From contig OZ024751.1 in assembly GCA_964016885.1 (NCBI GenBank), positions 45,136,001 through 45,200,000 of the forward strand: a stretch of 64,000 nucleotides of DNA, read 5' to 3'. Numbering within the stretch: position 1 is the stretch's first letter; every line of letters starts with the position of its first letter. Position numbers and translations under genes: made by a program. A model generated the notes under the pieces. The model worked only from the letters and a program-made list of their open reading frames with translations. It did no database searches and was not told where the DNA came from. Below, in pieces: positions 3,313 through 58,439 of the stretch. The DNA comes from Eledone cirrhosa (taxonomy: Eukaryota).

Positions 3313-3333
3313 ATAGATAGATAGGTAGGTAGG

Positions 3334-3411
<78 letters not shown>

Positions 3412-3412
3412 T
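3313..3412 (+). repeat. (GATA)n microsatellite, first of four tracts (3313-3412, 3882-3993, 5902-5945, 8428-8510) separated by Tx1 insertions
   Basis: Directly visible tetranucleotide repeat. Confidence 0.97.
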
Positions 3413-3880
3413 CTTTATTTGCCACAGGGGCGTACAAAAATGGGACATTACAAGACGTGACGGCGGGGGTTTTACATAAAAATAACTTTAACATTAATAA
3501 TTAACAATAAACTATATATAATAAAATAACAATTGAAATCCCCAATAGGGGGGGAACGTTACTGCGGGGTTGTTTTACACCCCATGGATAGAACTACCCT
3601 CAACACCAGGAACACGTTTTATATGTGTTCCTGTCTTCCCTCTGTTTATCTTCCTCAACCTACAGGTTTATATACAGAGAAGACCCATTCACTTGGGCCA
3701 TTTTTGCCACATTCACCCACCTTTCAGCGAATTTACTGGGGTGTAGCACCTCTCTCTCCACTCTCACCTTCCTTCTGAAGTGATACTTAAAGAAGGGGAT
3801 GAGTTGTTGTCCGGAGAGAAAGGTGTTTGCCCTCAATCTTTTTAACCTCGTCCACCATATTACCTCTTTCGCCATAGCCA
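3413..3880 (-). mobile_element. Tx1-clade non-LTR retrotransposon, heavily 5'-truncated copy A, in a (GATA)n tract
   Basis: Encodes AMAKEVIWWTRLK.LR..TFLSGQQL..FFKYHF..K.R.EREVLHPS, homologous to the C-terminus of copies B and C. The 3' UTR ends GTGGCAAATAAAGA followed by (TATC)n. GATA tracts flank both sides. Confidence 0.9.
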
Positions 3881-3942
3881 CTAGACAGAGATAGATAGAG
3901 AGAGAGATAGATATATAGATAGATAGATAGATAGATAGATAT

Positions 3943-3993
<51 letters not shown>

Positions 3994-3994
<1 letters not shown>

Positions 3995-5901
3995 GTTTCT
4001 TTTATTTGCCACTAGGGCATCAAAAGTGGGACAAGTACAAAGGGGGGAGTTTACACAAAAAGGCGTCCTCAATAAGGAGGAGGCAATAACAAAATATAAA
4101 AATAAAATGAGATATAACAAAAAATAAAATTTTTAACAAAATCCTCAATAGAGAGGAGGCGCCTTGGGGGGTCGCACACACCCCCGAAAAAAGTGTGCAA
4201 CCCTTCTCCTCAGGAGCACAGAGAAGGGGTGCTCCCTTGGTCTTTCATCTTCCTCACCTATAGTCTGATGTAGAGTGAAGGCCCATTCACACGGGCCATT
4301 CTCGCCACTTTCACCCATCTTTCATAGAAACAGCTGGGGTGCAGCACCTCTCTCTCCATCCTGATCCTTCTTCCGAAATGATATCGGAAGAAACGGACCA
4401 GTTGTTGGCCAGAGAGAAAGGTGCCTGACCTCAGTCCTTTCAGACGCGTCCACCATACAACCTCTTTCGCCATGGCTATTACGCACAGAAACACCGCCTC
4501 TGCTTCATCTTTGAAGGGGGGAGGCGGCTTGATCATTACAATAGACTCGGTGGTCAACCGGATCGGTCCCACCCTTGACAGCAGTTGTTCGACATAGCCC
4601 CACAGATCGGCTACGCCCGAGCAGTGTACCAATGCGTGTGCAACGGTTTCCTCGTCGCACACGCATCTGGGACAGATCTTTTTGGCGGGGTCCCTACCCG
4701 GGCGCCCGTGTCTGTAGAGCCTTTCTCGAACGGGTAAAGCCCCTCGGTAGCACTGCCAGGCCAGGGACTTCTGGAAGTTGTCCATAGGTCCCGGGCTGAA
4801 TGTCCTACCGAACAGGCTGGCCAGTTCGTCCTCCTCCATGTCTAGGGCTTCTCCGAGGACGTCGTCGCACTTGCTGCGTACCAGCCCTCTATAGAATGTT
4901 GCGGTGGAGTCTCCACTGATAACCGGATCCGCCTGCCAGAGGGCGGTGAGCGCCTGGGCACACTCAGTGTGCCAGGCGCCCAGTTTTCTCGGTCTTTGCT
5001 TGACCCAGGATTGCAGCTCGGTGAGTGAGACGAGTCTGGGAAAGGTTCGTCTCACAAACGAGGCCCACACCGGTTGTCCGGTGAGGAATACATAGAGGTG
5101 CCGTAGCCTTAATGCGTGTTTACGCATCATTAGCCACGGCATCCCCAGCCCTCCTTTCGAAGGGTGTTGACAGCAGATGGATCTCCTCACCATAGGAGCC
5201 CGCCTCTTCCAAAGGAATTGGAAGAGCGCGCGCTCCATCTTGGTGAGGGTTTCCCTTGGGCAGGGCACTACGGTCAGGCGGTAGTAGATGACGGACGCTA
5301 TGTAGGTGTTCGCCACCTCCGCCCGACCTTTCAGGGATAGTTTGCAACTGGCCCACTTCTGGGTCAGTGCAAACACCCTGTTCGTAACCTCCGCCCAGTT
5401 TTTCTCCACCTGGAGGTCCGGTCCGAACCAGACCCCGAGCAACTTCACCGGGCCCTCCGTCCAGCGTCCGACGACGCCATCGGAGGGCATCGGTCTGCCC
5501 CTCCACGTGCCGAGTTGCAAACCGATCGACTTGTCCCGGTTCAGCTTAGCCCCTGTGAACTTTTCGTACTCCTCCAGTAAGGTGCCGACCGCCTCGATTT
5601 CGGAGGCCGTCGACACCATTACTGTCACGTCATCGGCGTAGGCCGACACCGCTTTCCGCAATCCCAGTTCCAAAGGGATGCCCTGCAACAACTCCAACTT
5701 CCGCAGTAGTGGCTCGAGAGTCAACACATACAGAAGGGAGGAGAGAGGGCACCCTTGTCGGATGGACCGCGCGATTTTGAACGGCTCCGAGAGGTAGCCG
5801 TTCACCTTGACCCTAGAGCAGATGCGGCTGCTGTGCATAGCAGTGATCCAGCCCCTGAAAACGGGTCCGAAGCCTGCCGCCGCTAGCACCGCATCCAGGT
5901 A
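3994..5901 (-). mobile_element. Tx1-clade non-LTR retrotransposon, 5'-truncated copy B (open RT C-terminal half plus zinc knuckle)
   Basis: RT motifs IRQGCPLSSLLY and AYADDV, KLLGVWFG, KLSLKGRA, GGLG, and CPRC..DEETVAHALVHC (zf-RVT type). Stop at 4258, ~265 nt 3' UTR with AATAAA, flanked by (GATA)n. Confidence 0.95.
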
Positions 5902-5908
5902 GATAACC

Positions 5909-5945
<37 letters not shown>

Positions 5946-5947
<2 letters not shown>

Positions 5948-8427
5948 TTTCTTTTTATTTGCCACCAGGGCATCAAAAAGTGGGACAAGTACAATGGGGG
6001 GAGTTTACATGAAAAGGCGTCCTCAATAAGGAGGAGGCAATAACAAAATATAAAAATAAAATAAAATATAACAAAATAAAATTTATAACAAAATCCTCAA
6101 TAGAGAGGAGGCGCCTTGGGGGTCGCACACACCCCCGAAAAAAAGTGTGCAACCCTTCTCCTCAGGAGCACAGAGAGGGGGTGCTCCCTTGGTCTTTCAT
6201 CTTCCTCACCTATAGTCTGATGTAGAGTGAAGGCCCATTCACACGGGCCATTCTCGCCACTTTCACCCATCTTTCATAAAAACGGCTGGGGTGCAGCACC
6301 TCTCTCTCCATCCTGATCCTTCTTCCGAAATGATATCGGAAGAAACGGACCAGTTGTTGGCCAGAGAGAAAGGTGTCTGACCTCAGTCCTTTCAGACGCG
6401 TCCACCATACAACCTCTTTCGCCATGGCTATTACGCACAGAAACACCGTCTCTCCTTCGTTTTTGAAGAGGGGAGGCGGCTTGATCGTTACAATAGACTC
6501 GGTGGTCAACCGGATCGGTCCCACCCTTGACAGCAATTGTTCGACATAGCCCCACAGATCGGCAATGCCCGAGCAGTGTACCAATGCGTGTGCAACGGTT
6601 TCCTCGTCGCACACGCATCTGGGACAGATCTTTTTCGAAGGGTCCCTACCCGGGCGCCCGTGTCTGTAGAGCCTTTCTCGAACGAGCAGAGCCCTTCTGT
6701 AGCACTGCCAGGCCAGGGACCTCCGGAAGTTATCCATGGGTCTCGGGCTGAATGTCCTACCGAACAGGTTTGCCAGTTCGTCTTCCTCCATGCCTAGGGC
6801 TTCTCCGAGGGCGTCGTCGCACCTGCTAACCACCAGCCCTCTATAGAATGACGAGGTGGATTCTCCACTGACAGCCAGGTCCGCCTGCCAGAGAGCCGTG
6901 AGCGCCTGGGCACACTCGGTGTGCCAGGCGCCCAGTTTTCTCGGTCTTTGCTTGACCCATGATTGCAGCTCGGTGAGTGAGACGAGTCTGGGAAAGGCTC
7001 GCCTCACAAACGAGGCCCACACCGGTTGACCGGTGAGGAATACCTGGAGGTGCCGTAGCCTTAATGCGTGTTTACGTATCATTAGCCACGGCATCCCCAG
7101 CCCTCCTTTCGAAGGGTGTTGACAGCAGATGGATCTCCTCACCATAGGAGCCCGCTTCTTCCAAAGGAATTGGAAGAGTGCGCGCTCCATTTTGGCGAGC
7201 GTTTCCCTTGGGCAAGGCACAACGGTCAGGCGGTAGTAGATGACGGGCGCTATATAAGTGTTCGCCACCTCCGCCCGACCTTTCAGGGACAGTTTGCACT
7301 CGGCCCACTTCTGGGTCAGTGCAAATACCCTGTTCGTTACCTCACCCCAGTTCTTCTCCACCTGGAGGTCTGGTCCGAACCAGACCCCGAGCAACTTCAC
7401 CGGGCCCTCCGTCCAGCGCCCGACGACGCCATCGGAGGGCATCGATCTGCCCCTCCACGTGCCGAGTTGCAGACCGATCGACTTGTCCCGGTTCAGCTTA
7501 GCCCCTGTAAACCTTTCGTACTCCTCCAGTAAGGTGCCGACCGCCCCGATTTCCGAGGCCGTCGACGCCATTACTGTTACGTCGTCGGCGTAGGCCGACA
7601 CCGCTTTCCGCAATCCCGGTTCCAACGGGATGCCCTGCAACAACTCCAACTTCCGCAGCAGTGGCTCTAGAGTCATCACATACAGAAGGGAGGAGAGAGG
7701 GAACCCTTGTCGGATGGACCGCGCGATTTCGAACGGCTCCGATAGGTAGCCGTTCACCTTGACTCTAGAGCAGATGCGGCTGCTGTGCATGGCATTGATC
7801 CAGCCCCTGAAAACGGGTCCGAAGCCTGCCGCCGCTAGCACCGCATCCAGGTAACCATGGTCGACCCTATCGAACGCCTTAGATTGATCCAAGTTGATCA
7901 GGGCCCCACCAAAGCTGGGTTCGTTCCCAACCCTCTCTATGATGTATCGCATGAGGTGGAGGTTGTCGTGGCTGGACCTGGTGGGAAGATGCATGTCTGC
8001 GCATCTCCCACCAGGTTGCCCCACGACAAGCGCCAACCTCTTTGCTAGCACCTTGGCCAAAATCTGTAACTCTGTATTTAGCAGAGTTATGGCCTGAAAT
8101 TATTATATCGTCCCCCTTGTTCTCGTCCCTTCCTCACTAGCGTGACTACGCCTTGGTCACAGCACAGGGAATTCTCCCGTTCTGTTGCCAGTTGCAGTAG
8201 ACCGCCTCGAGGAGATCGGGGAACAAGTCCGGCATAGCTAGATACAGTTCGTATGGAAGACCATCGAGACCCGGGGATTTTGCGGTTTGCCGCATTGGTT
8301 CAGCACGTCCCCTCTATCTCAGCGGCTGAAATCGGCTCCTCGCAGGACTTCGCCTCCCTGTCCGAGAGACGCGGCAGGCCGTCGAGGTATGGACCGAAGT
8401 CCACATCCCAACCGGCTCCCCGCCCCT
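5946..8427 (-). mobile_element. Tx1-clade non-LTR retrotransposon, 5'-truncated copy C (most of RT domain; frameshifted near 5' end)
   Basis: Motifs AKVLAKRL, LDQSKAFDRVDH, IRQGFPLS, AYADDV and CPRC..ETVAHALVHC. Near-identical to copy B over the shared part. Upstream 8060-8427 is RT-proximal sequence with indels. Flanked by (GATA)n. Confidence 0.95.
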
Positions 8428-8511
<84 letters not shown>

Positions 8512-29759: not shown

Positions 29760-30035
29760 TCAGGGTGCGTTTTGTAATGACACCAGCACTACCACCTTAC
29801 AAGATGTTCCTAATAGAAGGCGGCAGGGACATCTTGTAGTATGGTAGTGCTGGTGCCATGACAAAATCCAGCCAGTCCACACTGTAAGGTGGTAGTGCTG
29901 GTGTCACAACAAAAAGCACCCTGTCCACCCTGAAAAGTGGTAGTGCTTATGGCTTGACAAAAAATACCCAGTCCATCCTGCAACGTGATTGTGCTAGTGT
30001 CACAACAAAAAGCAACTAGACCACCCTGTAAGGTG
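29760..30035 (+). repeat. Related ~48-bp tandem repeat (4-5 units) with one inverted unit
   Basis: GGTAGTGCTGGTGTCACAACAAAAAGCACCC...CTGTAAGGT units; 29760-29810 is inverted relative to 29826-29875. Confidence 0.75.
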
Positions 30036-30151: not shown

Positions 30152-31860
30152 ATCATCATCATCATCGTTTAACGTCCATCTTCTACGCTTGCATGGTTTT
30201 GGACGGGAATTTTCCCACTTGAGGCAAGATTGGTTGTCTTGCTCGTATAGGACTGTCTGGCAGGTTATCTACGGCTGGATGCCCTTCCTAACACCAACCA
30301 CTTTTACAGTGTGGACTGGGAGGTTTTTACCGTGTTACCTACATGGCCACATTACAGCGTGGACTGTGTTTCTTTTGTCGTGACACCTACACGACCTCAT
30401 TTATTTAGGACTGGATGTTGTGGTACCAACATAACTTTACATCGAAAGGGGTGGTGTGGATGGGGTGGGGGTAGTGGAACGGGGGTGTATTTTTGTGAAG
30501 AGGTGCCTACCGACTGTAGTTTTCGCTTTGTACTTAGGCAAGGCGGGTCTTCTGTATTACTGTGTAGCGCCAAACATCTCGGTCCAGAGACATTGTCTTG
30601 GAGAGATGTAAGTGTGTGAGGTCGGAATTTATCAAGTCGTCCCAGGTTTTTCTGGGTCTGCCTACTCCGTGGCTACGTCTATTTTTATCGCCCTGCACTT
30701 TTTTATACAGCTGTCGTCTTTCATGCGCATCACGTGACCATGCCAATGTAGTCTTTTCTCGAGTAAACAACATCTGATCCCTCTTATTCCTAATTTCTCC
30801 CTTAGTTCATTTATGCTTTGCCGTTCAAGTATATTACTATTACACATCCAACGGAGCAAGCAAGCTTCATTCCTCTCCAGTCTGCGTATATCCTCTGCAC
30901 ACAATGCCCAAGTCTCACTGCCATGTAACATTGCTGTTCGTATGCAGGCATCATACAGCCTGCCTTTCATTTTTAGAGAGAACCCTTTAGCGGCCAATAG
31001 TGGTATAAGCTCTCTGAACTTTTTCCATCCCGTTCTGACTCTAGCTACTGTACTTTCAGAGCACCCTCCACCACTGCTGATTTTGTCACCCAGGTAACGG
31101 AAGGTGTCCACTATTTCTATAGAACCATCTGTGCAATGGAATGAGCATTCTGTGGGCACTTGCTGCTACTTATTGCACCTGAGCACTGGCCACATATAAA
31201 ATCTATATTCTTAGTTAGCTTACCTGTGATCCCACTACATCTTTTATGCATCATACTTTGCATTTGGGACATAAAATGGAGTTTCTGCCTACTCCTTTCC
31301 TACACACTAGCATGGCCATTTCCCAGATGGGACCAGTGCCCTATTTTCCTTCCTACAAACTAGAACTTTAGTCTTAGACAGGTTAATTTTGAAGCCTTTT
31401 GATTCTAGGCCATGCTTCCATGTTTGGAATTTCTTCTCTAGTTCAGCCATTGATTCAGCTATGAGCGTTAGATCATCTGCGTATAGGAGTTCCCATGGCC
31501 AGGCGGTCTTGAACTCCTCTGTTATAGCCTGAAGGGCACTAATAAATAGGAGGGAGCCCTGATGAACACCAACTTTTACGCTAAACTCTTCACTATATTC
31601 GTTGTTAATTCTAACCTTGCTGACTGTTTCTTTATACATGGCTTGTATAGCTCTCACAAGCCATTCATCAACACCTAGTTTTCTAAGAGCCCACCAGGTA
31701 ATGGAGCGGTGGACTCTGTCAAAGGCTTTCTCCAAGTCAACAAAAGCTAAGTATAGGGGTTTACTTTTAGCTAGGTACTTCTCCTGTAGTTGTCGTACAA
31801 TGAAAAGAGCATCTGTGGTACTTTTACCTGACACAAACCCGAACTGCATTTTATCTAGAT
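30152..31860 (-). mobile_element. RTE-clade LINE, 5'-truncated and degenerate
   Basis: MQFGF..GKSTTDA.F..RQLQEKY, FVDLEKAFDRV, GVHQGS, LLYADDL, FRYLGD, MLHGSETW, RL.W.GHVMR, GRPRKTW; (GAT)n 3' tail; stops and frameshifts present. Confidence 0.93.
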
Positions 31861-32223
31861 GAAATATATATATATATACAAACACACATATACATATATC
31901 ATCTGTGAAACTCATGTAACAGGTCGATGATCAATAACATGTAAACGAAACTTCATCTTTCTTTTCTTTATGTGTGTATACATACATACATATATATGCA
32001 TATACATACACACATACATACACATATATATATATATATACATACATGTACATACATACATATACATATATGTACACATATTTAAACGATGATGATGATA
32101 TATATACATATATACATATATATACACACACATACGTATGTATATATACATACATATATATATATATATACATACATATATACATACATATATATATATA
32201 TACATACATATATACATACATAT

Positions 32224-36020: not shown

Positions 36021-38035
36021 GCTAATAATAATAAACACTGAAAGATCTTGTTATTGAATTAGGCATATGTGAGGAGGAGTGGGGGAAGGGTGTTGAGAGG
36101 AGGAGAGATATCTAACTACTTCAGTTATTACATCATATTACATGTTGGTGTGAGGAGGTGGGCTGGAACAATGCTACAAATAGAAAGTATGGCTTAGTGA
36201 TTAGGATGTTTAACTAATGATTGTAAGGTTGTGATTTCAATACCAGGTTGGGTGTTGTGTAATAGGTAGGAAGGCCAGAGTGAGATAGGAAAGGTGGTGT
36301 AGTTGGAAGGGTGGTGTGTGGTGGGAAAGGTGGTGTGGTAGGAATGGTGGTGAGGTGGGAAGGGTAGTGTGGTGGGAAGGGTGGTGTGGGGTAGGAAGAG
36401 TGGTGTGTGGTAGTAAGGGTGGTGTGTGATATGAGGAGCAGTATAACATAGGAGGGGTAGTGTGGTTGGAAGGATGGTGTGTGATATGAGGTGTAGTAGG
36501 AGTGGCAGTGTGTGGTAGGAGGGGCAGTTTAAGGTAGGAGGGAGAATGTGAGGAATCAAAAGGTAGGAGGGAAGGTTAAAAGCCAAACTGTGTAAACAAG
36601 GAAGCAGGCACCATTGAACTGATTAAAAGACAGAGATTTCCTGAACAAGACTAGTAAATTCCAGAGATTCCATAACGGCTGCTAACAGTGCAGTTGGTCT
36701 GTTGTCTGTTGGAGTGGTGATGGTGGGAGTGATAGTGGAGGTGTGATGATAGTGGGGAGGTCGTGATGGAGTGGCAAGTGTAGTGGTTGTGGTGTGTGAT
36801 GATAGTGATGATGGAGTGGCAGGGATATTGGTGAGGTGGTGAGTGGTGATGATGGCAGTAGTGGTGATAATGGGTGGTAGTGAGTGTGGTCCTACTGGTA
36901 ATGGTGGTTGGCAGAGGTCCTACATTCTGAATTCAAATCCCAGCAAAGTCTACTTTGCCTTTCATCTTTCAAACTTGATAAAATAAAGTACCAGTAAAAT
37001 ATTGAGGAGGAGACCTTATAATTGACCTCAGCAGGTGAAAATCCGGGTCTGATTGTCAGATAGGGGGACCATGGAAACCAATGATTTACAAATATTGAAG
37101 GTCATATTTGTTCAAAATACATTAAAAATGACAGGAAAAATAAATTTCACTTTCAAAATCCTAACCAAACCTATCAACTAACTACTCTAAAAATATTTAT
37201 TATTACACTCGACTCAGAAACAGGCATAATGTCCTGGGTTTGATTCTTGGACCAGGTTGCGCATTGTCTTCTTGAACAATACACTTCATTTCACGTTGCT
37301 ACAGTACACTCAGCTGAAAATAAGTACCAGCAATAGTCGTGAATTAACTCTACAATGGACTAGCATCCTGTCCAGAAAGGATTCTTGTACTCTCATTTAC
37401 TGATGAAAAATGAAATCAGAGAAAAGAAACCAGCCTGATGAGCTTAATGGGAAAGGCATATCAAACATTACCTATGTTTCACAAATAATTGGTTCAAGGT
37501 ATTTATCGATGTGATAGATATGACTCCAGTACCGACATATGGATTCAAATCAAAATATTTCTGTATATACATATAAATATATATATACATCCTATCCTAT
37601 CCAATCCAGAGCCTTCTCACACCTGTTGGAGGAACCCCTCCCGGTTTGACCTCAAGTGCTTTCTGTTTAGTTTTAATCATGTTAGGAGTGTAGCTGTACT
37701 CACTACGCTTGGCCAATTGTGGGTTGGTGAGGCTATTTAACCTGTAGTTGGGATGGATGGCCATTGACTCTGAGAAGTTCATCTATCCTTTTAACAACAG
37801 CTCTTGGTTTTTTGTGATGCTAGGAGTTCCACTTATCCTCCTAACCAGACCCTTGTCTAGTATATAGCTCGGTCTGAAGATCTGCATAAGGTGAAACATT
37901 TGATCTCGGTATGGTGAACTAACTGTTGTGGAACTACTTCTACCAAACTCGTCCCATGGACTGAGCACTCTACCACTACGGATATAACCCTCCAATGTGC
38001 AATAGATAGCAAGTGTCCACAGGGTACTAGCCCCT

Positions 38036-39045
38036 TCTATTGCCCAGATGGTTCTATAGAAATAGTAGACACTTTTCGTTACCTGGGTGACAAAATCAGC
38101 AGTGGTAGAGGGTGTTCTGAAAGTACAGTAGCCAGAGTCAGAACAGGATGGAAAAAGTTCAGAGAGCTTATACCGCTGTTGGCCACAAAAGGTTTCTCTC
38201 TAAAAATGAAAGGCAGATTGTATGATGCTTGTATACGAACAGCAATGCTACATGGCAGTGAGACGTGGGCATTGCGTGCAGAGGACCTGCACAGACTGGA
38301 AAGGAACGAAGCATGCATACTCCGTTGGATGTGTAATAGTAATATACGTGAACGGCAAAGCATAAATGAACTAAGTGAGAAACTAGGAATAAGAGGGATG
38401 AGATGCTGTTTACTCGAGAGAAGACTACGTTGGTATGGCCATATGATGCGCATGAAAGACGACAGCTGTATAAAAAAGTGCAGGGCAATCAAAATTGATG
38501 GTAGTTACGGAGTAGGTAAACCCAGAAAAACCTGGGACGATCTGATAAATTCCGACCTTACACACTTGCACCTCTCTAAGACAATGTCACTGGACCGAGA
38601 TCTTTGGCGCTACGCAGTAATACAGAAGACCCGCCTTGCCTATGTACAAAGCGAAACCTACAGTCGGTAGGCACCTCTTAACCAAATATACACTCCAATC
38701 CACTACCCCTATCCTATCCTCCCGCCCACCAACACCACCCTCTCTCTATAAAGTTGGTACCACAACATCCAGTCCAAATAAATGAGATCGAGATCATGTA
38801 GGTGTCACGAGAAAAAAACACACAGTCCATGCAGTAATGTGGCCGTGTAGGTAACACGGTAAAAAATTCCCAGTTCCACATTGTAAATGTGGTTGGTGTT
38901 AGGAAGGGCATCCAGCCATAGAAAACCTGCCAGATAGTCCTATATGAACGAGACATGGTCACCCGACCAACCTTGCCTCAAGTGGGACAACTCCCGTCTA
39001 ACCCATGCTGGAAAGTGGACGTTAAACGAGGATGATGATGATGAT
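38036..39045 (+). mobile_element. RTE-clade LINE 3' fragment
   Basis: FRYLGDKI, MLHGSETW, RRLRWYGHMMR, GKPRKTW; 3' UTR ends GGACGTTAAACGAG(GAT)n; very similar to the reverse complement of 30152-31150. Confidence 0.93.
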
Positions 39046-48733: not shown

Positions 48734-50887
48734 GGATAAAATGAAACGAAATATATATATATAGTTTCGTGTTAAATGTTGATGAAAGGAAAAGAACTGT
48801 CGAAAACCTGTTTTCTTTTTATTTTTGGTTAAATTATTCATTCTGCCTTCGCCTTCTTGCTCATATTCTAACAGTTTAGGGAACTTTTAGCGATGTAATC
48901 ATTTAGGGAGCGACTGTTGCCATATAAACAGCAGTGATTAAACCATATGGTGAGCTTGATACTAGTTAGTTTAGTTGTTGGGTGCCAACTTCTCTCTCTC
49001 ATTCTACTAAGGTAACTAAGTAACTGACTGGCTGACTCAGTGCAAATCAACTTTTAACACATCCACCCACCCACCTTAACATACTAGCATCACCTTTCTA
49101 GCTAATCGAACCCCACATCTATAGTTCCTTCTAAACCACATACACCCACGGCATTGTGAATATCCATGTGTCCATTAAAAACCCCTCCTTCCTCGTGATT
49201 CGGCGACTTTCATCTTGAAACGAACTCTCGGGTTGCTTTTTTTTAGTATAAAATTGAATCCATCTCTCTCTCTATATATATAATGTGTGTATGTGTGTAA
49301 TGTCTAAAAGCAGAAAGAAATCTCTATTTCCATGTGAAACCAAATACTGTGTTGAAATGCTAAATAAATGAGTTTCTAGGTTATTACAGTAAAAATATGT
49401 TAAGCGACCACCACCTTCATCTCCTCTACCCCGCTCTCTTTTTCTTCCCATATATTCCACGCCTGTGATATATAAGATTTTAATTTAATTTAAAGCCGGG
49501 TTTTCTCTGCCAATGTTTACACTGTTACTACCTCATAAATAATGACAACATCCCCACCCACCCGTTATCTTAACTGGTAACTCAATTCCGACTCCCTTTA
49601 ATACGTTCATTGGCACTCCCTATTTTTTTTTTTATTTCTTAACTACGTTAAAATAAATATATATACGATAAATATATTTACAAAGTAAGTAAGTTTCTGT
49701 TAACATTTGGTGACAAAACTAAAAGATATGCAAAGGAAGTCACGTACTACTATTTTGTATTTTGTTGATATATATCTATCTATCTATATATCTATATATA
49801 TATAGATAGATAGATATATACACACGGAACGTGATCAACGGGAATCTGTGAACTCAGAGTAGCAACAGAATACTCTCAGTAATGTGTGTGTGTATATATA
49901 TATATTGTATATATACATAGTGAAGGCCTTTATATATGTGTGTGTGTATAAAGTTTCGAACTCGTGTCAACCGACAAAGATAAAAAGAAGCATTTCTTTT
50001 ATGTCTACAATAAATTGTTACAATATCCGTGTTTGTGTATTCATTCCGCCTACGATAAATGTCAAACAAATTAGGTATAGTAAATTAATAGTCTGTACTG
50101 AAATTTGTGAGATTTCCTTCAAAAGTTCATTATCTGGAAGGAGCCTAAATATTTGTTTCTACTTTAGGCACAAGGCCAGCAAACACCCAGTTCATTACTG
50201 GTACTTTAAATATTGTTCAGTGTTTGTATTGGACATAATAATAGAAATCTTTGCTTAGTTTATATTCGAAGCAAACTGAAATAAATATTTTTTTTAAAAT
50301 ATTTATTTATTTGCTTACGTTAGTATTACTGCTTTTATTTATATTATCTCAGAATATTTCTGAAAAGGTATCATTGCATTTAGCAAGTTTATTTATCTAA
50401 TAGTAAATGACGATAGATTTATAAAATATCGTCAGATAATGTTTAAATCACAGATCAAATATACGTAAATATAATTTTCTACTTTTGGCACAAGGCCAGC
50501 AATCATCTCAGTACATTACTGGTACTTTATTTTATCGACCCTGTAAGGATGAAAGGCAAAGTTAACCTCGGTGGGATTAGTTATATACCCTATAGCAACG
50601 TAGTTCTTTTTGGCTTTTTTTTTTTATTTAGTCAGTTAAAACTTTGATGTGATGATTGTAGAGAATAATTAGAGATATAGTGTTAAACATTTATAACAAA
50701 TCCCGTGAATGTAAAATATTTTGTTTGCAGCCTTTCCCAAAATCTTATTTGTAGTCAGTACAATTTGGGTGTGTTTCCTGTTAGCTTTACAATCCATCAT
50801 ACTTCGACACATATTTCTCCATGTGTATTATTATATAAATATTATATATATATATATATATAAATATTATATATATATATATATATA

Positions 50888-53125: not shown

Positions 53126-53520
53126 TACTGTAAAGTGATTGTGTAGGCGTCACGACAAAAAGCCACCCAGCCTACACCATAAAGGGATTGTGTAGGTGTC
53201 ACGACAAAAAGCACCCAGCCCACACAGTAAAGTGGTTGTGTAGGTGTCACGACAAAAAGCACCCAGCCCACACAGTAAAGTGGTTGTGTAGGTGTCACGA
53301 CAAAAAGCACCCAGCCCACACAGTAAAGTGGTTGTGTAGGTGTCAAGACAAAAAGCACCCAGCCCACGCTGTAAGTTGGCCATGTAGGTGTCACGACAAA
53401 AATCACTCAGCCCACACTGTAAAATGGTCATGTAGGTGTAACGACAAAAAGTACTCAGCCCACACTGTAAAGTGGTTTTGTAGATATCACGACAAAAAGC
53501 ACCTAGCATACACTGTAAAT
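53126..53520 (+). repeat. 48-bp minisatellite (~8 units) inside an RTE 3' UTR-derived element ending at ~53668
   Basis: Unit CACACAGTAAAGTGGTTGTGTAGGTGTCACGACAAAAAGCACCCAGCC, followed by the RTE 3' end and a (GAT)n tail. Confidence 0.9.
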
Positions 53521-55421
53521 GTGGTTGACGTTAGGAAAGGCATCCAGTTGCAGAAACCAATCCAGAAACAGTTCTGTATGAGCAAGACACAGTCACCGAT
53601 TTGCCCCAAACAGGACAACCCTTCTAACCCATGCTAGCGTGGAAAATGGACGTTAAACGATGATGATATATATTTGTTATTGAAGTTTCACCAAAGTTGC
53701 TGGTTTTTAATGTAGCATTAACTAAGTTTGCATGCAAGCAAGGTCCTGTAACTCCCGAAGGAGTCGTAGGGGTGCCGTATCGACATACAGCATTTCTGGG
53801 GCATTTCTTACTGAACCCTTCCTTGGCCGTCTGAAACTCATTGGTTTAATTTTGGGGTCTTAAAAGATTTACAGCTGTTTTGAGCTTGGCAGAGCCCATC
53901 TCCTCTCCAGGTCCTGAATACAGTGGATTTCTTCCTGAGAAGCATAGGGAAAGTGAGAAAACAGAAGTGAATAAGAGATATAGAAGACGAACCGACTCCA
54001 GTACTTGACTGGTACTTTTTTATCGACCTGAAATGGATGAAAAGCAAAGTTGACCTCGAACTAAGTTTAGATAAGAGGAAATAGGTAGATGTAGGAAACA
54101 GTGCAAAAAGGAGTGAGGAGTAGAACATTAAGGTGTAGCAGAGGATACTAAAGAAAAGTTAAGGAATAGAGAGGTGAAATAAACAAACAATATCGAGGAC
54201 ATAGGTGTGAGGCGTATTTTCCACTTAATCATGTAAATAAATCCCCCTGCTCTATTAAGTGTTGAAGGTGAAGGTCACTGGTAAAAAAAACCCAATCAGA
54301 CTACATGTATGTATATATATATATATATATGTGTGTTTATTTGAATCTATAAATATGTGTATCTATGTACACACATCATACGATAACAGAAGTTTGATGT
54401 GCTTTTGATTCCAGAGTCGGACCCGATCGACACATCGAACCTTAAGCTGATCAATCGCGAAACGCGCGTCACATTTCAATAAATGTAATGAAAATTTGAC
54501 ATCTCGTCCATATTATTATTAAAGTACCAGTAATGTACTGGGTAATTGCTGGCCTTGTGCCTAAAGTAGAAACAATTATTATTATTATCCTGTCGAGGTT
54601 AACTTTGCCTTTCATCCGTACGGGGTCGATAAAATAAAGTAGCAGTAATGCACTGGTATAATTGCAGGCCTTGTGCCAAAAGTAGAAACAATTATTATTA
54701 TATATACACACATAAATACACATGTATATAAGTTTTATATCCACTTTCCCATGCAGGCATAGGTTGAGACAGTGATTTATAGACGAATGCCTACCATTTT
54801 AGTCACTTTCTAGCCACGTTGCATCTATTCTAATATACAGATATTCTTTATTTAAATCTGAAAATCGTTGAAATTCTATTTTAAAATGTCATTTAAATTA
54901 TATAATGTTTGCAGTAAAAAAGAATTCTTTGTTACTAATCTCTTGTGAAATGTTTGTCTGTGGGAACATTTCTTTAAATTTACAACCTCTGCATTTCCAA
55001 AACTTCTCAATATATTTTGTATTTTGGTCAGTTCTAAATTGTTTCATTCTTCGCGTTTTCGTGTCTAAGTTCATTGTTCTTCACGCCGTCTCCTTAGTTA
55101 TCTCCCCTTTTTTTTCATCTTTTAGGTCAACTCTCCATCATCTTCTCCATTAACCCCCCAACCAGCTCGCTGAAATATCCATTCATTCGCTTTCTCATAT
55201 ATTACTTACTGGTTTCTCTGCTGCAAATATTATTATCATTATTTGTTGTTTTCAATTTTCTGACATTTCAGCCCGCTAACATTATTATTGGTAGTAGTAA
55301 ATTTTATTGTAACTCATTGCAGACAAATAGTCTTTCAACGATTGGCATTCGTTATATGATGTTTCACAACAAACCATGTTTTTGGGAGTTCATAAAAATT
55401 AAGCTATATTTCCTTCTTTTA

Positions 55422-57379: not shown

Positions 57380-58439
57380 ATATCACGGTAAATTAAAGGA
57401 ACCATAGGCCCTCGCTATTCCCTGTAAATAATGTGCTCAAAGGAGAAGAAATCCTGAGCTCTTTAAAATACAATATGTTGAAAAGGTAACACACCAGAGA
57501 GAGATATACAGTGCGCTATCAATAAAACGGAAAAAAACCACCAGTGTATGGAATCTATAACCTATGAAAGGCAGACTATAGACATGATAATTAAAAATAT
57601 AAATTAAAGCGTAAATAAATACCTCTATAACTATATAACACGTACAAATCCAAAGATATGTTTCACCAGTAATTTGTTGAAAGAAATGGGTTAGCCTCGG
57701 TTCATCAGCGTGTGTAAGGCTATACATTTCAGACAACACTAAGAGAATTCTAAAAGTGACTGTGCAGCTACATGTGTGAGAGGGAAGTCGCAGCATGTTT
57801 AAGGGCACTGAACCAGTGGCCTCTGAGGGACGAACTGCTAGAAAGGGTAGCCCAAAGCCACTCAGAGAAGTGTGCTCAACCAAACAGAGATATAGGAAAG
57901 ACTGTTATGAGGAGCGAAATATCACGATAAATTAACGGAGCCATAGGCCCTCGCTATTCCCTGTAAATAATGTGCTCAAAGGAGAAGAAATCCTGAGCTC
58001 TTTAAAATACAATATGTTGAAAAGGTAACACACCAGAGAGAGATATACAGTGCGCTATCAATAAAACAGGGAAAAAACCCACCAGTGTATGGAATCTATA
58101 ACCTATGAAAGGCCGACTATAGACACGATAATTAAAAATATAAATTAAAGCGTAAATAAATACCTCTATAACTATATAACACACGTACAAATCCAAAGAT
58201 ATGTTTCACCAGTAATTTCTTTCAACAAATTACTGGTGAAACATATCTTTGGATTTGTACGTGTGTTATATAGTTATAGAGGTATTTATTTACGCTTTAA
58301 TTTATATTTTTAATTATCGTGTCTATAGTCGGCCTTTCATAGGTTATAGATTCCATACACTGGTGGGTTTTTTTCCCTGTTTTATTGATAGCGCACTGTA
58401 TATCTCTCTCTGGTGTGTTACCTTTTCAACATATTGTAT
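57380..58439 (-). mobile_element. Non-coding hammerhead-containing element (Penelope-like or retrozyme-like): partial tandem with 539-bp period plus an inverted terminal arm, in (TA)n
   Basis: 57381-57675 is directly repeated at 57920-58218. 58215-58439 is an inverted copy. Complete hammerhead at 57638-57713. TA repeats at both ends. Confidence 0.85.
57638..57713 (-). ncRNA. Type I hammerhead ribozyme
   Basis: Minus strand: acacg CUGAUGA acc-(loop)-ggu GAAA cauauc uuug gauuug UA cgugu. Stems I, II and III all pair, the core is intact, and the cleavage triplet is GUA. Confidence 0.85.

Follow-up and report, generated by a model that had tools for sequence, protein, structure and literature searches.

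Why should every copy of a retrotransposon found in a 64,000-nucleotide stretch of contig OZ024751.1 (positions 45,136,001 to 45,200,000; the whole stretch is called the window below) lie inside the same tetranucleotide microsatellite? The element can be assigned by its sequence to the L1 group of retrotransposons that lack long terminal repeats (the non-LTR type), and the window holds four of its copies. Copies A, B and C stand head to tail in one orientation, with GATA arrays between and outside them; a fourth copy, D, was found by self-search of the window and has the same orientation as the other three (Table 1). Since all four copies sit in such arrays with the same polarity, the family likely inserts specifically into (GATA)n, in other words, it likely targets GATA/TATC repeats.

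The repeat is abutted by all eight ends of the four copies and reads (TATC)n on the sense strand of the element at each of them. The preliminary description of this DNA had stated that every junction of A, B and C abuts the repeat, and copy D extends this statement. Four different 5' truncation points contrast with a single fixed 3' end, located 248-264 bp past the stop codon in A, B and C. Every copy passes from AATAAA through a few bases straight into TATC without poly(A), while the 5' ends join the repeat after TATC or TATCT, permitting a microhomology of 0-4 bases. The three same-orientation copies with different truncation points were thus described correctly, but the claim that they are separated only by (GATA)n has to be qualified in minor respects: GGTA units are present, the spacer between A and B is partly degenerate (GATA units make up 82% of its bases) and the four-base island at the 5' junction of B matches the four bases with which copy C continues there. 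A pattern shared by the 3' untranslated regions (UTRs) has four matches in the window, one per copy, and none in 100 shuffles. Because there is only one match per copy, the arrays located 5' of C and D are not the tails of a further upstream copy.

Table 1. Copies of the element and adjoining GATA arrays, in window positions (ORF, open reading frame)
Feature	Position	Strand	Remarks
GATA array 3' of copy A	3313-3411		about 25 units, 3 of them GGTA
Copy A	3412-~3890	minus	76 terminal codons of ORF2 with the stop at 3660; 3' UTR 248 bp; distinct subfamily
GATA spacer joining the 3' end of B to the 5' end of A	~3891-3993		12 perfect units beside B, degenerate beside A
Copy B	3994-5901	minus	547 open codons, stop at 4258; 3' UTR 264 bp
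Spacer between C and B	5902-5945		one GATA unit, 4-base element-like island at 5906-5909, then 9 perfect GATA units
Copy C, the longest	5946-8427	minus	ORF2, starting near residue 388 of the relative P0127 (1111 aa) and running to the stop at 6210
GATA array 5' of copy C	8428-8511		21 perfect units, then unique DNA without an element 3' end
Degenerate GATA/GACA array 3' of copy D	23450-23562
Copy D	23563-24065	minus	87 terminal codons of ORF2 without interruption, plus 3' UTR; third subfamily
Degenerate GATA/GACA array 5' of copy D	24066-24129		64 bp, then unique DNA

An alignment of 1909 bp gives 94.3% identity between copies B and C. Copy A shares 76.5% identity with B or C over 247 bp of the ORF tail, and its 3' UTR has diverged from theirs, in agreement with the distinct 3' UTR reported earlier; D is 74-81% identical to A, B and C. 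Within the last 77 codons the synonymous divergence (dS) amounts to 0.96-1.07 between A and the other copies and to 0.67-0.70 between D and B or C, and the ratio of nonsynonymous to synonymous divergence (dN/dS) is 0.10-0.19 in the comparisons involving A and D. Over 547 codons, B and C differ at 23, 23 and 48 sites by codon position (dN/dS 0.29, p 2e-8 against neutral change). The divergence among the copies therefore bears the imprint of purifying selection. Judging from dS, dN/dS and the codon-position pattern, the copies had different source elements, and duplication of a single insertion on the spot does not account for B and C. The insertions are independent, as had been proposed, not only for A (dS about 1.0) but also for D (about 0.7) and within the closely related B/C pair, and the proposed growth of the array by repeated insertion is supported. 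The purity of the spacers suggests that A is the oldest copy in the stack.

GATA-type arrays account for 526 of the 58,623 non-element bases (0.9%), and for two separate loci to fall both into such arrays and in one polarity, the chance is about 2e-5. With the repeat type picked only once the data had been seen, the true figure should be one to two orders of magnitude larger. TA runs cover 3,922 bases of the window against 324 bases of GATA, a twelvefold difference, yet no copy end is touched by TA. Perfect runs of at least three GATA units occur 11 times in the window: nine belong to the six arrays touching the element, and the remaining two, at 49773 and 49802, consist of three units each. 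Another long interspersed nuclear element (LINE) family, which we take to be RTE-like judging by its motifs, is represented in the window by fragments at 30491-31930, 37997-38686 and 26523-26988 (reverse transcriptase domain RVT_1, E 1.5e-21) that are not near GATA. It served as a control: six alignment ends of this unrelated reverse transcriptase (RT) family, which are not proven element ends, lie 2.4-11.8 kb from any GATA run. The GATA association of the window family persists across subfamilies separated by a dS of 0.7-1.0. According to PMC4494074, target specificity can be assumed when one sequence type is found in more than 20% of flanks; GATA repeats flank 4 out of 4 copies at both ends in our sample of two loci.

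Sampled words of copy C are present in ten sequencing runs from six studies with several organism codes, and four of these runs were aligned to C; X3 and X4, with a share under 0.2, do not count as evidence. In run X13, which comes from another individual, 173,621 reads aligned on C: 2,001 (1.2%) at an identity of at least 99%, 5,540 at 95-99%, 41,146 at 90-95% and 124,934 under 90%. This spread of identities indicates that the family is abundant and diverse. In 78 reads of X13, a copy truncated at position 7274 is joined to the 3' end of another copy (position 5953) via a spacer of five GATA-phase units and seven letters resembling the 3' end of D. This joint adds another head-to-tail pair, again spaced by GATA and with a further truncation point; it is seen in one of the 12 matches listed with their letters (137 more exist), the other listed ones being internal. 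Logan contigs of runs X5, X1 and X8 also contain the family, but their flanks are not usable. The GATA/TATC targeting put forward in the preliminary description is thus backed by all four copies and by one read-derived junction.

What kind of element is it? The Pfam domain RVT_1 was found in C (E 4.8e-18) and, covering a part of the RT, in B (E 3.4e-11). zf-RVT, a C-terminal CCHC-type zinc motif, scores slightly below its curated cut-off in both copies (E 4e-5 in C and 1e-5 in B) and above it in P0127. This 1111-aa relative is 69-70% identical to C and B over the shared part and contains an endonuclease, an RT and zf-RVT; the endonuclease is of the apurinic/apyrimidinic (APE) type (Exo_endo_phos, E 2e-12), and the best relative of P0127 with a solved structure is human L1 ORF2p (E 1e-50). 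The closest proteins are 67-72% identical, and the named ones are those of Argonauta hians (61%), Octopus bimaculoides (51%, in a short segment) and Acanthosepion pharaonis (37%), which points to an octopod as the likely host. The ESM Atlas returned only unnamed RVT_1/zf-RVT clusters.

An Rfam scan of the flanks of 60 relative loci gave 13 matches, including U2 at L003, L005, L007, L012 and L014, 5S at L018, L021 and L122, and U1 at L041 and L120. By their targets, not by named records, we infer the U2-flanked loci to be Keno-like and the 5S-flanked ones to be Mutsu-like. RNA-gene-flanked elements score above human L1 when compared with P0127: the bit scores are 390-455 for four U2-flanked and one U1-flanked element, 320-351 for three 5S-flanked elements and 253 for the U1-flanked L041, versus 175 for human L1 ORF2p. 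Trees were built with IQ-TREE for 47 hand-picked rows out of 143 and with FastTree for all 143, after dropping four loci and one protein with short RT matches and 36 out of 40 near-identical array loci. In all trees the window copy belongs to a fully supported clade with cephalopod proteins. In the three IQ-TREE runs (47 rows) this clade is sister to the U2/U1-flanked group, with SH-aLRT values of 97 and 94 and, in one run, a bootstrap of 80 with an SH-aLRT of 95; FastTree with its 143 rows did not recover this relation. As the trees include neither a named Tx1 element nor an L1 outgroup, membership in the Tx1 clade, to which the preliminary description had assigned the family, is only probable. 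L120 and L041 are two distinct Tx1-like elements with a partial U1 small nuclear RNA (snRNA) gene at the 3' end (L120:9961-10137 and L041:9202-9356). The nesting of L120 within the U2-flanked group suggests a putative switch of target from U2 to U1.

Endonuclease and ORF1 are reached by none of the four truncated copies. Copy C is open for 629 codons and copy B for 547, but the 5' 450 bp of C match P0127 in three frames due to frameshifts. Several of its indels are absent from most reads (915 out of 1,159 at 8127 and 298 out of 313 at 8281), and of 35 listed sites within the ORF part common to both copies, 25 have in B the letter which the reads show instead of that of C. These differences may represent either decay or consensus errors. 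Recent activity, which had been suggested by the long open frames of B and C, is not borne out, considering the frameshifted C, the endonuclease missing from all copies and the small share of reads at least 99% like C.

The nearest relatives available with their DNA context are 41-44% identical and come from CAXXMW01, listed as a genome in GTDB under the title 'uncultured Arenicella sp.', in which they occupy 40 overlapping loci (L081-L118, L121 and L126) on at least 16 contigs. The CAXXMW01 arrays probably are animal DNA binned as bacterial. Their units, mostly full-length, are spaced about 6.4-6.9 kb apart, run head to tail (97 out of 97 matches in one orientation) and code for a 636-aa ORF1 (L089; zf-CCHC, E 1e-5) and a 1158-aa ORF2. 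They adjoin one another directly after AATAAA; no microsatellite was found at the joints, and no Rfam RNA in the five loci scanned. This suggests that the units insert at their own 3' ends. A telomeric role of these arrays was considered and rejected, as the TTAGGG doublet is absent in 40 out of 40 loci. CAXXMW01 loci and the window copy fall into the same 12-row clade (100/100). Like the window copies, these relatives stack head to tail, but they differ in having mostly full-length units and no GATA spacer; stacking is hence a habit of the clade, and GATA is not its sole context.

Alignment A2 found no close relative with DNA context among 135 metagenome and 22 genome-contig candidates, and viral contigs contained no match to the 3' UTR pattern or to the broad alignment A4. 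With A4, 80 out of 530 metagenome loci were kept, all of them distant (24-45% identity in the best segments). A run of three TATC units was present in one of the 126 relative loci, at the contig start. The contigs of two distant relatives, L046 and L035, end in (ATTG)n or (AT)n; both are single copies and no targeting is claimed for them. A 62% identical relative (P0005/P0124) is filed in NCBI as a protein of a Herbaspirillum sp. metagenome-assembled genome, on a 1.8-kb contig, and its source is probably animal DNA in a bacterial bin.

How could such stacks arise? We consider it quite probable that they result from target-primed insertion into (GATA)n, with each copy regenerating the target. 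Target-primed reverse transcription is the established mechanism of LINEs (PMC4494074). An APE-type endonuclease, expected from LINE biology and present as a domain in P0127, would nick the GATA strand, and the freed 3' end would prime cDNA synthesis, probably aided by pairing with UAUC units at the 3' end of the RNA. The synthesis would stop early, giving the 5' truncation, and the cDNA would join the other half of the repeat via the 0-4 bases of microhomology. Since the target is periodic, the target-site duplication would be invisible and both flanks would still be targets; therefore, later copies from other source elements would be able to stack head to tail. Tandem copies produced by sequential insertion have been described for SINEU-3 and Utopia (PMC4494074, PMC4640811).

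The preliminary description treated the repeat solely as a target, but the RNA may also carry it as a tail. In this main alternative, the same architecture would be led by the tail: the RNA would end in (UAUC)n, the endonuclease would be weakly specific, and the element would land wherever its tail pairs, including the tails of older copies, thereby also creating or lengthening GATA arrays. Such behaviour would fit the direct passage from AATAAA into TATC without poly(A) in four copies, the contact of all window GATA arrays longer than three units with a copy, and the relatives' arrays, which start directly after their own 3' end; microsatellite tails pairing with the target have been described for RTE, CR1 and L2 elements (PMC6007223). 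However, the 21 perfect units 5' of C and the 64-bp degenerate array 5' of D, with no element beyond, would not be placed there by a tail alone, and the 3' microhomology reported for animals is only 1-2 bases (PMC6007223), so we regard the tail-led scenario as unlikely. Another possibility is that copies insert without specificity and simply pile up in DNA rich in microsatellites. Passive accumulation has been proposed for Drosophila Waldo-A and -B (PMC3812793), and the window is indeed microsatellite-rich (154 rows); yet despite the prevalence of TA over GATA all eight ends are in GATA with one polarity, and the unrelated RT family lies kilobases away from GATA. We find this explanation very hard to sustain. 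A tandem duplication or an assembly artefact is just as improbable as the source of the stack: the 94% identity of B and C and the possible consensus errors in C could hint at it, but the codon pattern of the B/C differences excludes plain duplication, A and D are only 74-81% like B and C, the truncation points differ, and the architecture recurs at a further junction in independent short reads.

Several observations weigh against GATA-targeted insertion. The evidence base consists of two window loci and one read-derived junction; the reads at this junction share a single read start, and it is one among 15 joints listed (654 more exist). GATA units make up only 42% and 50% of the bases in the flanks of D, the 5' flanks of two of the four copies (A and B) double as the 3' flank of the neighbour, and the nearest relatives with context form their arrays without any GATA spacer.

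Microsatellite-specific insertion itself has precedents. Waldo, Mino, Dong and Togen belong to the R1, R4 and NeSL-related clades. Like the window family, they are microsatellite-specific, but for other units: ACAY in Waldo, AC in Mino, TAA in Dong and TG in Togen (PMC3812793, PMC4640811). ACAY, AC, TC, TTC and TAA are all known as microsatellite targets of non-LTR elements (PMC3812793). Closer by type are the APE-type microsatellite inserters Kibi, specific for (TC)n, and Koshi, specific for (TTC)n, both Tx1-clade elements of teleosts, and crocodilian Tx1 elements found in (TTCC)n and (TTTC)n (PMC4494074); the TCC target ascribed to Kibi earlier should be corrected to (TC)n (PMC4494074, PMC3812793). 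One base per unit separates (TATC)n from (TTTC)n. Compared by target only, Kibi and Koshi with relatives use TC, TTC, TTCC and TTTC units, Kibi and Koshi in teleost hosts, whereas the window family uses (TATC)n, probably in a cephalopod host. No GATA-targeting non-LTR element was found in the literature searched, with most subscription papers, Repbase and Dfam outside the search, and neither GATA nor TATC is mentioned in the available text of PMC4494074. In Octopus vulgaris, L1-Tx1 elements comprise 80 families and 56.3 Mb, and 13 families with 421 insertions were counted as recently active (PMC13282606). The window family may be among them; the main text and supplement of that paper name no L1-Tx1 target site and mention neither GATA nor TATC.

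Among the groups whose kind of target is known, the Keno-like one, represented by the U2-flanked L007, L012 and L014, lies closest to the window family in the three IQ-TREE runs. The window copies do not lie in U2 snRNA genes, as Keno does; their flanks are GATA repeats and unique DNA. The U2-flanked elements share about 30% identity with the window family and differ from it in having an RNA-gene target with an A-run before it. In three out of three U2-flanked loci (L007, L012 and L014) the 3' flank starts with GTATCT, compared to TATCT in the window copies. A shared TATCT recognition core is possible but a weak lead: it is five bases long, was seen post hoc, and the U1-flanked element of the same group has a different flank. 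We may speculate, at long odds, that a cephalopod Tx1-type lineage descending from U2-targeting (Keno-like) ancestors kept the TATCT core and switched to (GATA)n, with sister branches turning to their own 3' ends instead. The GATA-targeting branch would then both colonise and seed arrays, and much of the long GATA repeat of octopods would be the footprint of a single undescribed family.

Two further features of the window were noted. At 58007-58439 lies a near-perfect 430-bp palindrome (98.6%) without a loop, which follows a direct repeat of some 300 bp (57384-58230); it either is genuine, as an inverted duplication, or arose by fold-back in the assembly. A 48-bp minisatellite unit is dispersed at 29842-30035, 53127-53527 and 26357-26463 and is apparently part of a repeat family.

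As microsatellite-specific LINEs are already known, a GATA target would add a repeat unit and a host phylum to their range. In octopus, L1-Tx1 elements span tens of megabases, and PMC13282606 describes no target for them. Diverged subfamilies sharing one target, together with self-stacking sister branches, would make a series in which the contributions of the enzyme and of the RNA tail to the change of APE targets can be compared. In practical terms, GATA markers in octopods may adjoin multicopy flanks.

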